NCBI GenBank assembly: GCA_000004695.1 | Contig: CM000152.2 | Span: forward strand, 576,001 to 640,000 | Origin: Dictyostelium discoideum | Lineage: Eukaryota | Direction: 5' to 3' | Length of the DNA stretch: 64,000 nucleotides | Shown here: in pieces, positions 7,779 through 52,103 of the stretch | Layout: every line of letters starts with the position of its first letter | Numbering within the stretch: position 1 is the first letter of the stretch | The notes under the pieces: generated by a model | The model's database searches: none | Seen by the model: only the letters and a program-made list of their open reading frames with translations | Told to the model about the DNA's origin: nothing | Position numbers and translations under genes: made by a program

Positions 7779-7918
7779 CATATGGTCTTTTCTTTTATTT
7801 TTAAATTTTATTTTTAAATTTTTTAATTTGATGATGAATTTAATCGGATTTAGATTTGAATTAGATTTGAATTAGATTTGAATTAGATTTGAATTAGATT
7901 TGAATTTCGATTTGTACA
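7779..7918 (+). repeat. Copy A of a dispersed element of about 140 bp with an internal (AGATTTGAATT)5 tandem array
   Basis: The sequence catatggtcttttcttttatttttaaattttatttttaaattttttaatttgatgatgaatttaatcggatttagatttgaatt(agatttgaatt)x4 tcgatttgtacatg matches the reverse complement of 51962..52103 at roughly 85% identity. That copy carries 3 tandem units. Confidence 0.8.
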
Positions 7919-10380
7919 TGTTGGTTTTTTTTTTTAGAGAATCGAAAAAAAAAAAAAAGAAAAAAAAATATATTAATTCATTGAAAAAACGTATTGGTTA
8001 TCTTCCTTTTGTAAGAAATAGGTGGGAAATTTTTTTTAATTTTTTTTTTTTCCAACCTATTTCTTTTACAGCAACAAATACATTTTTTTATTTATTTTTT
8101 ATTTATTTTTATTAAATTATTAAAATTTGAACCATTTATTTAATTATTCGTAACATTTGGGAAATTACTTGAAAAATTGGATGACGACAAACCACCCAAT
8201 AAAAAAAAAAAATAAAAATAAAAAAAAAAAAAATTGTTTTTTTGAGAAATAAAAAATAAAAAAAAATTGTTTTTTTTTATTTCATCGCGATTGGTACAAC
8301 ACCCACTCCTACCCAATCAGAGTCAAAAAAAAAAAAAAAAATAATTCACTCGTTTTTACAGTAGTATCGTTTTTTTGTGAAAATAAAATTTTATTTCAAA
8401 AGCATGTATTTTTAGGTGTTTTGTACCCGTTGTTGGAATTTCAACAGTTTGATTTTGTTAAAAAACGACAAATGAAAAAAATGATTGGTTCATTATTTTA
8501 GTGTTATTGTGATTTTTTTCAGATTGAGATTTCGGCTTTTTTTGAAATACACATCAGTTTTTAAAAACAGTTTGTGCTCAATCAAATTAAAGGATTGTGT
8601 GTTTTCATTTCCTAATATGTTGTTTTTTTTTTTTTTATCATAAGACATTATTGTAAAAGAACAAAAAACATTTACTTTTTTTTTTTATTTTATTTTTTTT
8701 TTTTATTCAAATTTTAATTTAATTTTTTTTTTTTTTTTTTTTTTTCTAATCACTTTTCACTTTTCATTTCACTTTTTTTTTTTTTTTTTTTTTTTTTTTT
8801 TTTTTTCCAATAATATAATTTTAATAATCCCTTTTCATAATTTTAATTTTTTTTTTTATTTTTTTTTTTTTTTTAAATTATTATTTTTATTATTATTATT
8901 ATTATTATTATTATTATTAATTTATAATTTTTCATATAACATCATAAAATACTTCTTTTTTATCATTCCCAACTAAATAAGATTTTGTCCAATAAAAAAA
9001 AAAAAAAAAAATTTACACACAATCAATAAAAGGAAGCAAAGATTTATCACAAGATTTTATTGGTTCAGAGGTTTTTTTTTTCATAAGCAATTAGATTGTA
9101 TAAAAAATTACGATTGGAAATTTTTTAAAAAAAAAAAAAAAAAAAAAAAATTATTTTTTAAAAAAAAAAAAAAAGCCATTTTTTTTTAAGAATCTTACGG
9201 ACAACCCATTATCAATATTTGGTGTTCGATAAATTAATATTGTCTCAAAAAATAATTTTCGTATTTTTTAAAAAAAAGACAGTCAGTTGATTAAGATAAT
9301 TTAAAACGCGGGTCGTCCAATCAAAAACATTTTTTCCACTTTCCAACCTTTTCTATTTTTTTTTTTTTTTTTTTTTTATAATTAAAATATTATTAAAATC
9401 AATTCAATTTATTAAAAAAAAAAAATTTTTTGGTTTTTTTTTTTTTATCCACTTTTTTTTTTTCTTTCTTTTATTATTATTATTATTTATTTTTTTATTT
9501 ATTTTTTTTCATTTTTTTTTTTTTTTATAATAAATAATTTACAACAATATTAAAAATAATTTACATTTTAAAAATTTTATTTTATTTTATTTTATTTTTT
9601 TTTTTATTTAGAAAATAATTACATAAAAATAATTGTACGCATCACCACTTTGCTCATAGTAAAAATAATAATAGTAAAATTAAAATTAATCACATCAACA
9701 AAACACCTATAATTTGAAATTAAATTGCTAAATTTATCCCCCACCCCAAATTCAAATAACAAAATTTAATTTAAATATTTTTTTATTTTTTTATTTTTTT
9801 TTTCAACAAAAATAATCACGTAATCATCCATTTCTCGTTTTTTCGCTTTTGAAAAGGACCAAAATAATAATTTTTGACTTTTTTTTTTTTTTTTTTTTTT
9901 TTTTTTACAATAAACAATTCATACACGACAAGGCCAGGGTTATATTTTTTATTTTTTCAAAAAAAAAATAAAAATAAAAATAAAAATAAAGGAATTAATC
10001 AACTCGTTTTGAATATTTTTTTAATTAATCAACTCGTTTTGAAATTTTTTTTTTTAAATTTTTTTTTTTTTTGTCCAAATTTAAAATTTAATCATTTCAA
10101 ATAATAACCCAATCCCCATCACTGTTCAATTTTTCAAAACCACCATATAAAAAAAAATAAAATAAAATAAAATAAATAAAAAAAAGTAACACCAATCATA
10201 ATTTATTTTGGAAAATAATACATATTTTATTTTTATTTTTATTTTCCAGTTTAAAAAAAAAAAAAAAAAAAAAAAAAAAATATTCCTATAAATTAAAAAA
10301 AAAAAAAAAAAAATTAACCATATTTATTTATTTATATATAAAATAAAATAAAATAAATAAAAAAAAAATAAAAAAAAAAA

Positions 10381-13126
10381 ATGGTAGAATCACCAAAAGT
10401 TAGAAGAACATCATCAAGTCAAAGATTATATAATAATAATATTAAATGGGTTACTGTTAGACCATCAACAGATAATAATAATAATAATAGTAGTCAAAAA
10501 AGAAGTAGTAATATAAATATTTTTACAGGTGAAAGCCACCAACCTGAAGAATTTGAAATTGAAAGCCATGGAAGTAGTAGTAGTATTGGTACAAGTTTAG
10601 ATGAATATAATCAACATTATTTACAAGCACAACAACACCAACACCAACACCAACAACATAAACATATATTTGGGTCATCATTTGTTGATTTATCCGGTTT
10701 CACACCAAATAGTTTTGAATTCAAATATCCATCAGTTGGAAATTCTCCAAGTGTAACTGTTTCATCATCATTATCACTATCATCGTCAATCATGGGTACA
10801 AGTTCTGGTAAAAGTAAATTATCATTGGACACTTGGAAACTTGCCAATCCAGATTCCACAATTACAATTAAAAAAATAAAAACAAGTCCACGTGGAAGTA
10901 AAGAAGATATTTTTAATGCTGATTCCGAACAACAACCACAATCATCACCACAATTACAATTGCCATTACATCCACAACCACAACCACAATCACAATCACA
11001 TATAACTAGTAATGCTAATGCACCACAATCTTCATTTAATAAAGTACAACCACAAGGACAAGAACCACAATCAGTTGTAAATAGAACTAGATCAAGACAA
11101 TTATCTAAACCACCAGTTTTCATTCAACAATTTCAAAATCATCATCATCAACAACAACAACAACAACAACAACATCAATTATCAACATCTCAATCATCTG
11201 CATCATCATTAATTTCACATACTCAAAGAAGATTATCAAGAGCAAAACAACATCAAGTTGAATTTAATAATAATGGTAATGGAAATAGTAATAATGGTAA
11301 TGGTGAAAAAGTACATTTACAACATGCATTGGTTTTATATAGTTTTGATGCTGATCTTGAAGAAGAATTAAATTTAATTAAAGATACTACAATCATTGTT
11401 GTTGAACAATGTGCTGACGGTTGGTGGAAAGGTAGACATTTAGATTCCACCAAAGTTGCTACTTTCCCTGCAAATTATGTTAAATTAATACCATCATTAT
11501 TACCACAAAATAATAATAATACTACTACCACATTACCATCATCGTCATCATCAACTAATACTACTACTACCACCACTAATAATAATAATACACCAACATC
11601 AATTGATCAACAAATTCAATTATTAAATAAAAAAAGATCAGAATCACTTTCAAATGGTAATAATAATAATAATAATAATAATAATAATAATAATAATAAT
11701 AATAATAATAATAGTTGTTTTAAAGATGATCCAAATATATTTTTTCCAACATTTAATAATAATTTAAGTAGTAGTAATAGTAGTAGAGTAAATACTGATA
11801 ATGGGTCAATGTCATTTAGTAAATCATCAAGATCAATTAGAAAGAATAGTTTATCATCGTCATTTAGTAGTAGTAGTAATGCATCAGCATCGATTTTATT
11901 CCAAATTAAAGTTTATGTACCACCATTTCATGAACATACAATTATATTAATAGCTGGTGGTGATACATTAAAAGATTTATTAGAGAAACTTGGTAGAAAA
12001 AAGAAAATGTTATTCAATGAATTTAAATGTAAATTAAGATATTACGATTCAAATATTGATTTACCATTGGATACTTTAATTTCATCTTTAAAAGATTCCG
12101 ATAGAAATCCATTAAAATTATTCATGTTATCATTTGACTATATTAATAAATTTAATAATATAACTACAAATATCCAACTTTCAAATTATTTTATAATTTC
12201 ATATAATAATATTAAAAATAATAATAATAATAATAATCATAATAATAATAGTATTTTACAAAAACAATGGGTTATATTTGATAATCAGTCAATTCAAATT
12301 TTTAATAGTCATACAGATCAACAACCAATTAGAATTATTGGATTGAAATATAGTAGTGTGAAACACTCAAATTCTTCTCCAAATTGTTTTATTGTTAAAA
12401 CTCCATTTAGTTTATTTAAATTCACTCATGACTATTTTAATATCGTTAATCAATGGATTGATACAATTGAGCAATCTAGGGAATACCAAGATGGTAATCC
12501 AAATTTAAAAAGAAAACAAAAGAAATTAATTATTAAATCATCAGATTCTTTATCGAATACAACTTCTTCATTATCTTTCTCTGGTCATTTCCCACCACCA
12601 ATTGATAGAAAACAACAAATTCTTGAAATTAGAAATAAAGAAATTAATAGAGTTTGTGTTGACTGTTGTTCAAAAGATCCTGAATGGGCTTCAATCTCAT
12701 TAGGTTGTTTCTTATGTGATACTTGTTGTGGTATTCATCAAAAAGTACTTCCAAATTATTCTGAAGTTTTATCAGTAATTTTAGATGATCAATGGGAAGA
12801 TATTCATATTAATGTAAGTTGAAAATAATTAATTATATAAAAAAAAAAAAAAAAAAAAAAAAAGTGTTTAATTAAAAATTAATATTAATAAAATAAAAAA
12901 AAAAAATATATACATATTTAAAAAATAGATTTTTGATAAAATTGGTAATAATATTTCAAATCAATATTGGGAATATAATTTATTATCAAAAATTGTAAAA
13001 CCAAATAGTTTGGCATATGAAAAAGAAAATTTTATAGTTTCAAAATATAAGAAAAAAGAATTTACTCCATCAGTAAATATACCATGTCCAATTTCAATTT
13101 TTAATAATGAATTCTCTAAACAGTAA
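10381..13126 (+). CDS. Multidomain ArfGAP protein: Asn/Gln-rich N-terminus, SH3 domain, RA/ubiquitin-like segment, PH-like domain and a C-terminal ArfGAP zinc finger
   Basis: Two exons, 10381..12813 and 12929..13126 (intron GTAAGT...AAAAATAG, phase 0). SH3: ALVLYSFDADLEEELNLIKDTTIIVVEQCADGWWKGRHLDSTKVATFPANYVKLI. ArfGAP: CVDCCSKDPEWASISLGCFLCDTCCGIHQKV...WEDIHIN|IFDKIGNNISNQYWEYN...KPNSLAYEKENFIVSKYKKKEF; the second exon completes the ArfGAP fold. A PH-like C-terminal helix (...FNIVNQWIDTIEQ) is also present. Confidence 0.75.
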
Positions 13127-51925: not shown

Positions 51926-51961
51926 TTTTAAAATTTTTTATTTTATTTTTTATTATTCGAT

Positions 51962-52103
51962 TAATAAATAAATCGATACAACATCAAATCGAAATTCAAA
52001 TCTAATTCAAATCTAATTCAAATCTAAATCCGATTCAATTTATTATTAAATTAAAAAATTAAAATAAAATTTAAAATAAAAGAATAGAAAAAAAAACATA
52101 TGG
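51962..52103 (-). repeat. Copy B of the dispersed element of about 140 bp with an internal (AGATTTGAATT)3 tandem array, inverted relative to copy A
   Basis: The reverse complement aligns to 7779..7918: ..catatgg..ttttaatttaataataaattgaatcggatttagatttgaattagatttgaattagatttgaatttcgatttg.. Both copies sit 25-85 nt downstream of the stop codon of a + strand gene. Confidence 0.8.

Follow-up and report, generated by a model that had tools for sequence, protein, structure and literature searches.

How did two inverted copies of one short intergenic segment come to bracket 44 kb of gene-dense Dictyostelium discoideum DNA? The stretch analyzed here, 64,000 nucleotides from the forward strand of contig CM000152.2 (assembly GCA_000004695.1, positions 576,001 to 640,000; from here on, the window), carries one copy just downstream of an MFS transporter gene (copy A) and the other just downstream of a frizzled/smoothened-like gene (copy B), and each contains an array of 11-bp tandem units. 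A preliminary description of the window had noticed the pair and placed three explanations side by side, namely an element resembling a miniature inverted-repeat transposable element (MITE), a conserved 3'-flank or terminator module and the footprint of an inversion or segmental event, with retention of an old duplication as a fall-back. Our reading, to which we give a probability of roughly 60%, is that copy B arose by a single neutral, homology-templated and lineage-specific ectopic duplication of a minisatellite-bearing spacer segment. The preliminary interpretation is, overall, partly supported: the pair is real, and the fall-back survives, sharpened to a dated and directional copying from A to B, but none of the three explanations placed ahead of it is supported as stated.

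The loci used for comparison were reached from two sides. Orthologues of the MFS gene led to the A locus of D. discoideum (L020), D. cf. discoideum (L021), D. citrinum (L022) and D. firmibasis (L023), and the cluster around the isoleucyl-tRNA synthetase (IleRS) gene led to the B locus of D. firmibasis (L024), D. citrinum (L025), two D. discoideum strains (L026 and L027) and two D. cf. discoideum genomes (L028, assembly GCA_054859205.1, and L035). The window, L026, L027, L028 and L035 are the five D. discoideum-group genomes referred to below for copy B, and the copies of the window itself are called AX4 A and AX4 B where they have to be told apart from those of other genomes. Copies were sought by pairwise local alignment, with background scores taken from alignments against 300-350-nt pieces, and with a profile (nhmmer) from which copy A of D. 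firmibasis was excluded. The window has a GC content of ~16-37% per 2 kb and contains long A/T runs and AAT-coded asparagine tracts.

Copies A and B are homologous. Read on the plus strand, copy A runs from ACATATGG through a T-rich stretch and TTTGATGATGAATTTAATCGGATTT into five units of AGATTTGAATT and ends with TCGATTTGTACATGTTGG; copy B, read on the minus strand, runs from CCATATGT through a T-rich stretch and TTTAATAATAAATTGAATCGGATTT into three units of the same 11-mer and ends with TCGATTTGATGTTGT. The intervals originally aligned (7779-7918 and the reverse complement of 51962-52103) give 119 matches, 8 mismatches and 28 gap columns, most of the latter being the two additional 11-mers in copy A, and the identity is thus 94% at ungapped positions and 77% over all columns, which makes the earlier figure of roughly 85% a fair one. 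The local alignment scores 162-228, whereas no other piece scores above 69 in the window or above 74 in the other Dictyostelium loci scanned, apart from a (GATTT)n microsatellite with a score of 84. Further, the 45-nt string AATTTTTTAATTTRATRATRAATTKAATCGGATTTAGATTTGAAT, which joins the unique core to the first unit, occurs in the window only at 7817-7861 (+) and 52016-52060 (-), and shuffled sequences lead one to expect 0 occurrences. Exact 11-mers start at 7852, 7863, 7874, 7885 and 7896 in copy A (+) and at 51993, 52004 and 52015 in copy B (-) and at no other site in the window, which, together with the TRF result for copy A, bears out the arrays of five and three units. We note that, of the extents first given, the core intervals stand, but the best-defined unit is that listed in Table 1, past the limits of which the similarity enters A/T runs and is not judgeable. 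Likewise, of the motif CATATGG that was said to be shared, CATATG is common to both copies, but the full motif is present in copy A and copy B reads CCATATGT. About 90 nt of unique flanking sequence surrounds the array and was duplicated together with it, and it is because the array is embedded in this co-duplicated flank that the pair resembled an "element".

Two inverted copies on one chromosome have a geometry that permits recombination, and the pair might therefore be thought to mark or to have mediated an inversion of the 44-kb block. The block has not been inverted, because it is collinear with or without copy B in all genomes compared. Window positions 1-18000, which span the A junction, are collinear with L020-L023, and the order of the frizzled-like gene, the B site, a gene for a 1409-amino acid (aa) protein and the IleRS gene is identical in L024-L028 and L035. 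In D. discoideum, D. cf. discoideum, D. citrinum and D. firmibasis, the last two of which have no copy B, a single contig carries the MFS and IleRS genes on opposite strands with 46-50 kb between them, and the window shows the same arrangement with a distance of 49 kb. The low-copy repeats that mediate inversions elsewhere, by non-allelic homologous recombination, are similar in that two inverted homologous segments bracket a gene block, but the segments here are ~125 bp long and ~80% identical, too short and too diverged for efficient recombination. An inversion marked or mediated by the pair thus seems scarcely credible, and a segmental event is not supported either. The figure of ~27 genes given earlier for the interval between the copies fits the locus-tag spacing of 23-27 in the relatives.

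We next consider the ages of the two copies. Copy A is found at the same position past the MFS stop codon in L020, L021 and L022, and a degenerate copy A is present in D. firmibasis (L023 12166-12218), where it matches the profile with E=5.7e-4 and reads AAACCATTCGG ... CGATTTCATT AGATTCGAATT AGATTTCAATT. Because it occupies the same site in four species, copy A is old and predates the split of D. firmibasis. Copy B, on the other hand, was found in all five D. discoideum-group genomes, but the profile search of the orthologous spacer in D. citrinum (L025) and D. firmibasis (L024) gave no match even at E<=10. Copy B is restricted to one lineage, and in both outgroups the segment is present at the donor site A and absent from the recipient site B. 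The recipient spacer, between the frizzled-like gene and the 1409-aa gene (window 51926-52600), differs greatly in length between species: it is shortest in D. citrinum, at 434 nt (L025 18029-18463), measures ~670-700 nt in the D. discoideum group and reaches ~950 nt in D. firmibasis, in which a long (TTTA)n array takes the place that copy B has in D. discoideum.

The bases that distinguish the copies suggest in which direction the segment was copied. Identity is 0.79-0.82 between copy A of discoideum and copy B, 0.72-0.76 between copy A of discoideum and that of D. citrinum, and 0.69-0.70 between copy B and copy A of D. citrinum. Copy A of discoideum reads AATCGG and GAATTTAAT, readings shared by the B copies apart from that of L028 at AATCGG; copy A of D. 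citrinum reads AATCGA and GAAATTAAT, and D. firmibasis reads CAAATTT. At the sites where the D. citrinum and D. firmibasis copies agree against that of discoideum (AATCGA/CAAATT versus AATCGG, and GATCA versus GATGA), the outgroup base is in no B copy: the AATCGG site has the exact discoideum-A reading in every B copy except that of L028, and at the GATGA site the B copies read GATAA, AATGA or AATAA. Copy B of L035, the most divergent of the B copies, is the closest to copy A (TTTGATAATGAATTTAATCGG). We infer from these readings that copy B derived from copy A of the discoideum lineage, and the simplest history would be one copy event from A to B, later than the divergence from D. citrinum but earlier than the diversification of the D. 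discoideum group.

Alternatively, both copies could be older than the D. firmibasis split and have been kept similar by occasional gene conversion in the D. discoideum lineage, copy B having been deleted in D. citrinum and having decayed in D. firmibasis. The short D. citrinum spacer is consistent with this, in that it also lacks ~150-190 nt of non-element sequence, as is the unit-like GATAGATTTAA kept at the D. citrinum junction; the D. firmibasis B site, for its part, has a pairwise score of 74 and some suggestive strings. However, a score of 74 is background, the profile that detects copy A of D. firmibasis finds nothing at the B site of either outgroup, and this history requires two losses plus conversion in place of one gain. 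We therefore regard an ancient pair as improbable, and return to a single copy event from A to B.

The junctions of copy B are informative on how such a copy could have been made. The D. citrinum site without copy B reads ...AAAC-A13-GATAGATTTAA-GTTATCGATTTAT, that is, it already has an A-run and a unit-like GATTTAA beside the sequence that flanks copy B in D. discoideum, where copy B sits between the A-run and GTTGTATCGATTTAT. An A-run adjoins the left end of every B copy, and on copy A, the donor, an A-run lies to the left and CGATTTG..ATGTTGG to the right. An A-run (left) and GATTTrA..GTT (right) occur both at the D. citrinum site and at the ends of copy A, but these are strings of low complexity that may match by chance. 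An inverted copy that came from 44 kb away on the same chromosome, with such short homology at either end, would fit the repair of a break with an ectopic donor. We propose the following sequence of events. Copy A would be an old non-coding piece of the spacer downstream of the MFS gene, in which the 11-bp minisatellite expands, contracts and homogenizes through replication slippage. Once D. citrinum had split off, ~125 bp of it, from CCATATG beside the A-run, through the array, to TCGATTTG..ATGTTG, would have been copied a single time, in inverted orientation, in the ancestor shared by the D. discoideum group; the recipient would be the spacer that separates the frizzled-like gene from the 1409-aa gene. 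Most likely, a DNA break at site B was repaired with copy A as the ectopic template, by synthesis-dependent strand annealing or by a template switch, primed by the short homologies of the A-run on one side and the GATTTrA-GTT stretch on the other. Both copies would have drifted neutrally since, copy B with G-to-A decay and strain differences in unit number.

PMC8421209 gives a general account of templated insertions and ectopic gene conversion in double-strand-break repair, by synthesis-dependent strand annealing or MMBIR-type template switching. The pair resembles such insertions in that a segment of ~10^2 bp appears to have been copied to a new site from a locus close by on the same chromosome (which can occur in either orientation), with possible short homology at the junctions and with no target-site duplication (TSD), no terminal inverted repeats (TIRs) and, in the DNA sampled, no family of copies. 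It differs from them in that the event is deduced here from a comparison of species and in that the A-runs and AT-rich strings at the junctions are possibly a matter of chance.

The same junctions bear on the view that the pair is a low-copy, non-autonomous DNA transposon of the MITE type, copy A being an old fixed insertion and copy B a later transposition from copy A or from a copy outside the sample. The discrete unit of ~125-150 bp with an internal tandem array is as in some MITEs, as are the size, the AT-richness and the intergenic position; copy B is present in some and absent from other close species, which a MITE would explain, although other mechanisms predict the same; and the boundaries of copy A, CT-A14-CAT on one side and ATG-TTGG-T11-AG on the other, form a homopolymer inverted repeat. 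Further, DNA transposons occur in these genomes: those of Dictyostelium include thug-S (PMC4894637), and L028 contains a gene with a DDE_3 transposase domain. However, no TIRs are common to copies A and B, and the A14/T11 "TIR" is of low complexity and found at copy A but in no B copy. No direct repeat that would represent a TSD is seen at the junctions of copy B when the five genomes are compared with the empty D. citrinum site, with a certainty limited by the low complexity of the sequence. Only two copies were seen, and one of them has stayed at a single syntenic site, common to four species, from a time before D. firmibasis split off. We therefore consider a MITE unlikely.

The number of copies in the DNA sampled argues in the same direction. 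No third copy was found, by pairwise scan or profile, in the ~420 kb made up of the window and L020-L035. This sample includes 127 kb of unlinked DNA, namely six loci around major-actin genes of D. discoideum and D. cf. discoideum, which likewise contained no copy by either method. Were the density of the window (2 per 64 kb) typical, 127 kb should contain ~4 copies, and the probability that none is seen would be ~0.02. Because the two copies lie close together and none is present in the unlinked DNA, a local event is favored over a dispersed family. The 11-mer alone occurs once in the 127 kb of other loci. A search of the literature for the repeat sequence found nothing. A two-unit 22-mer of AGATTTGAATT is also present in 19 unrelated contigs (L001-L019; 17 metagenome and 2 prokaryote) with GC contents of 0.23-0.68, some of which have short arrays with alignment scores up to 120 but do not have the unique part. 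These collections contain no Dictyostelium DNA and are uninformative on copy number in Dictyostelium; the occurrence of the 22-mer in unrelated contigs indicates that the 11-mer array arose independently elsewhere.

A wider version of the mobile-element view is that the unit is an undescribed low-copy, non-autonomous mobile or copy-and-paste element of the D. discoideum species group, or a lineage-specific cis-regulatory cassette with a phased array that binds a factor, which moved at least once after the D. citrinum split and has more copies elsewhere in the 34-Mb genome, outside the 127 kb of unlinked DNA sampled. We think this doubtful. Were a mobile element or an array of binding sites true, it would be a new small element or regulatory motif for the Dictyostelium catalogue and of moderate interest, to specialists only.

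The arrays have the properties of a minisatellite, that is, head-to-tail units of 11 bp with variation in copy number and in unit sequence between strains and species. Copy A has five perfect units in the window, five with one variant in L020 and L021, ~3 in D. citrinum and ~3 degenerate units in D. firmibasis; copy B, across the five genomes, has 3, 3, 2 plus a duplicated end unit, 3 with variants, and 2. Overall, the unit number ranges from 2 to 5 between genomes, and copy B shows G-to-A decay between strains. As in other minisatellites (units of 10-60 bp), units appear homogenized within an array, as seen when the five perfect AX4 units are compared with the variant units of L020 and L021; what differs is that the array is set in ~90 nt of unique flank duplicated along with it.

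The remaining question is whether the segment does anything. It was reported that both copies lie just 3' of the stop codon of a plus-strand gene, which is the case, and that a 3'-flank or terminator module could be the reason. A functional cis-element of this kind would be a phased 11-bp array of binding sites, or bent DNA, that acts in 3'-end formation, termination or regulation and was recruited twice independently. In its favor, both copies lie <100 nt from the stop codon, the period of the array is near the helical repeat (11 bp, about one turn), the palindrome CCATATGG is kept in L020 and L021, and copy A has persisted in place since before the D. firmibasis split. However, the four flanking genes (MFS, SH3-ArfGAP, frizzled-like and the 1409-aa open reading frame (ORF)) are all on the plus strand while copy A is on the plus and copy B on the minus strand, so the copies are oppositely oriented relative to their neighbors, a point to which the preliminary description gave no weight: past the MFS stop codon the order is CATATG and then the array, and past the frizzled-like stop codon it is the array and then CATATG. 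Copy B is absent from D. citrinum and D. firmibasis although both species keep the two flanking genes, and neither the varying unit number nor the single 11-mer in 127 kb of other loci is what a binding-site array would lead one to expect. Nor is the element better conserved than the surrounding MFS-to-ArfGAP spacer: the identity of 7796-7895 is 0.54 to D. citrinum and 0.44 to D. firmibasis, compared with 0.84-0.92 and 0.43-0.83, respectively, for the spacer blocks 8296-8595 and 8996-9395; the highest values in neighboring blocks are 0.86-0.92 and 0.71-0.83 for the two species. The palindrome CCATATGG is altered in AX4 A, in copy B, in D. citrinum and in D. firmibasis; it may resemble a DUSE-type non-coding RNA (ncRNA) promoter or an SRF/MADS CArG-box, but it is not conserved. 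A possible resemblance to the TTGA repeats of Dd-STAT does not fit in spacing. A functional cis-element is therefore rather improbable.

The possibility that the pair represents a two-copy gene for a small ncRNA (a small nucleolar RNA (snoRNA), a microRNA precursor or a Class I RNA) is more remote still. Copy A contains UGAUGA, which is box C-like, and the sense strand of the array can fold back with G-U pairs. However, Rfam 15 gave 0 matches in the window at the gathering score, and at E<=1 the sole match in 7600-10400 is a chance Phe_leader outside the element; as RNA, the sense strand folds weakly, with z-scores of -2.2 (A) and -1.1 (B), and no fold is seen for the antisense strand. A snoRNA was rejected: the box C-like string is AAUAAUA in AX4 B and GAUCACG in copy A of D. 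citrinum, and there is no box D. We conclude that, as judged from the sequences, neither copy is likely to have a sequence-specific function and both are probably neutral.

Several points weigh against a single neutral copying from A to B. The argument from derived states depends on 2-3 sites, and neutral DNA at the distance of D. firmibasis is near the limit of recognition. Because the D. citrinum spacer is ~280 nt shorter than that of D. discoideum and is also without sequence that has no homology to A or B, an older copy B could have been deleted there. The homologies at the junctions consist of low-complexity sequence and could be fortuitous. The lack of any copy in 127 kb excludes, at 95%, only a family of more than ~800 copies, and is compatible with a family of tens. 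Lastly, a lack of extra conservation is, by itself, compatible with function.

If copy B arose as proposed, the pair would show, on a small scale and for a datable event, how sequence is added to the spacers of a gene-dense and very AT-rich genome by ectopic copying of ~10^2 bp along with a minisatellite, and it illustrates that one-off copies can pass for a repeat family when one window is read. The pair could be used as a neutral marker, copy B being a shared derived character of the D. discoideum group compared with D. citrinum and D. firmibasis and the unit number of the 11-mer varying between strains. The event is of a known kind and would be of little importance beyond this locus.

The features of the locus are collected in Table 1.

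Table 1. Positions of the two copies, their arrays and adjoining runs, and the neighboring genes in the window
Feature	Position	Strand	Evidence
Copy A, putative ancestral copy, 147 nt	7778..7924	+	Sequence; alignment to B; same-site orthologues L020, L021, L022, L023
Copy B, putative derived copy, 126 nt	51978..52103	-	Sequence; nhmmer 52103-51979, E=2.3e-23; present in L026, L027, L028, L035
11-bp minisatellite of A, 5.2 units	7850..7906	+	TRF TTAGATTTGAA, period 11, 100% matches, score 114
11-bp minisatellite of B, 3 units	51993..52025	-	Exact 11-mer positions
A14 run adjoining left end of A; candidate left homology (low complexity)	7764..7777	+	Sequence
A13-G-A9 run adjoining CCATATG end of B	52104..52126	-	Sequence; junction compared with D. 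citrinum
MFS transporter gene upstream of A (ORFs 5627-6277 and 6370-7695)	5627..7695	+	Pfam MFS_1 E=1.7e-43; orthologues P0001-P0007
Frizzled/smoothened-like multi-exon gene upstream of B (exon limits approximate)	49261..51925	+	ORF pieces; 44%-identical paralogues
1409-aa asparagine-rich ORF downstream of B	52601..56830	+	ORF; orthologues of 1401-1493 aa called in L024-L028, L035
IleRS gene	56971-60359	-	Spliced product

Copy A begins 84 nt past the MFS stop codon (7695), at the head of a 2.7-kb spacer that separates the MFS gene from the SH3-ArfGAP gene starting at 10381, and the MFS ORF matches proteins of D. discoideum and D. cf. discoideum with 94-95% identity. Copy B ends 37 nt past the frizzled-like stop codon (51925) and is ~500-620 nt upstream of the ATG of the 1409-aa ORF. 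The spliced IleRS product of the window shows 0 mismatches in 1067 residues to that of D. discoideum AX4 (XP_642268), so the window is from AX4 or a strain nearly identical to it. The window contains no tRNA genes. The window exons of the frizzled-like gene have no Pfam match by themselves; its paralogue P0016 carries Pfam Fz (PF01392), and the L028 D. cf. discoideum orthologue has only a weak Fz match. The protein search with this gene returned only the 44%-identical paralogues and not its own orthologues, although each related assembly has a called gene of 645-689 aa at the corresponding position.

The MFS-to-ArfGAP spacer (7696-10380) is unusually long and has no called gene in four related assemblies. 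It contains three conserved blocks (8296-8595, 8996-9395 and 9696-9795), with identities of 0.84-0.92 to D. citrinum and up to 0.83 to D. firmibasis. A protein-coding reading of these blocks was rejected, and because tblastn matches occur in every frame and on both strands, their conservation looks non-coding, as would be the case for regulatory DNA or an unannotated RNA. In the same spacer, a 17-bp inverted repeat that is almost perfect (AAGAAATAGGTGGGAAA ... TTTCCAACCTATTTCTT, 8009-8068) follows copy A at a distance of ~85 nt and has fold z-scores of -3.5 (+) and -4.2 (-). It is kept in L020, is present with altered arms in D. citrinum, is absent from D. firmibasis, and in D. cf. discoideum (L021) has its left arm swapped for a different hairpin partner.

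Finally, the transposase gene of L028 mentioned above (3586-5271) encodes 406 aa with a DDE_3 domain (PF13358) and lies a few kb from the IleRS gene. Because it is not called at the matching place in the D. discoideum, D. citrinum or D. firmibasis loci, it is probably a strain-specific insertion of a DNA transposon.

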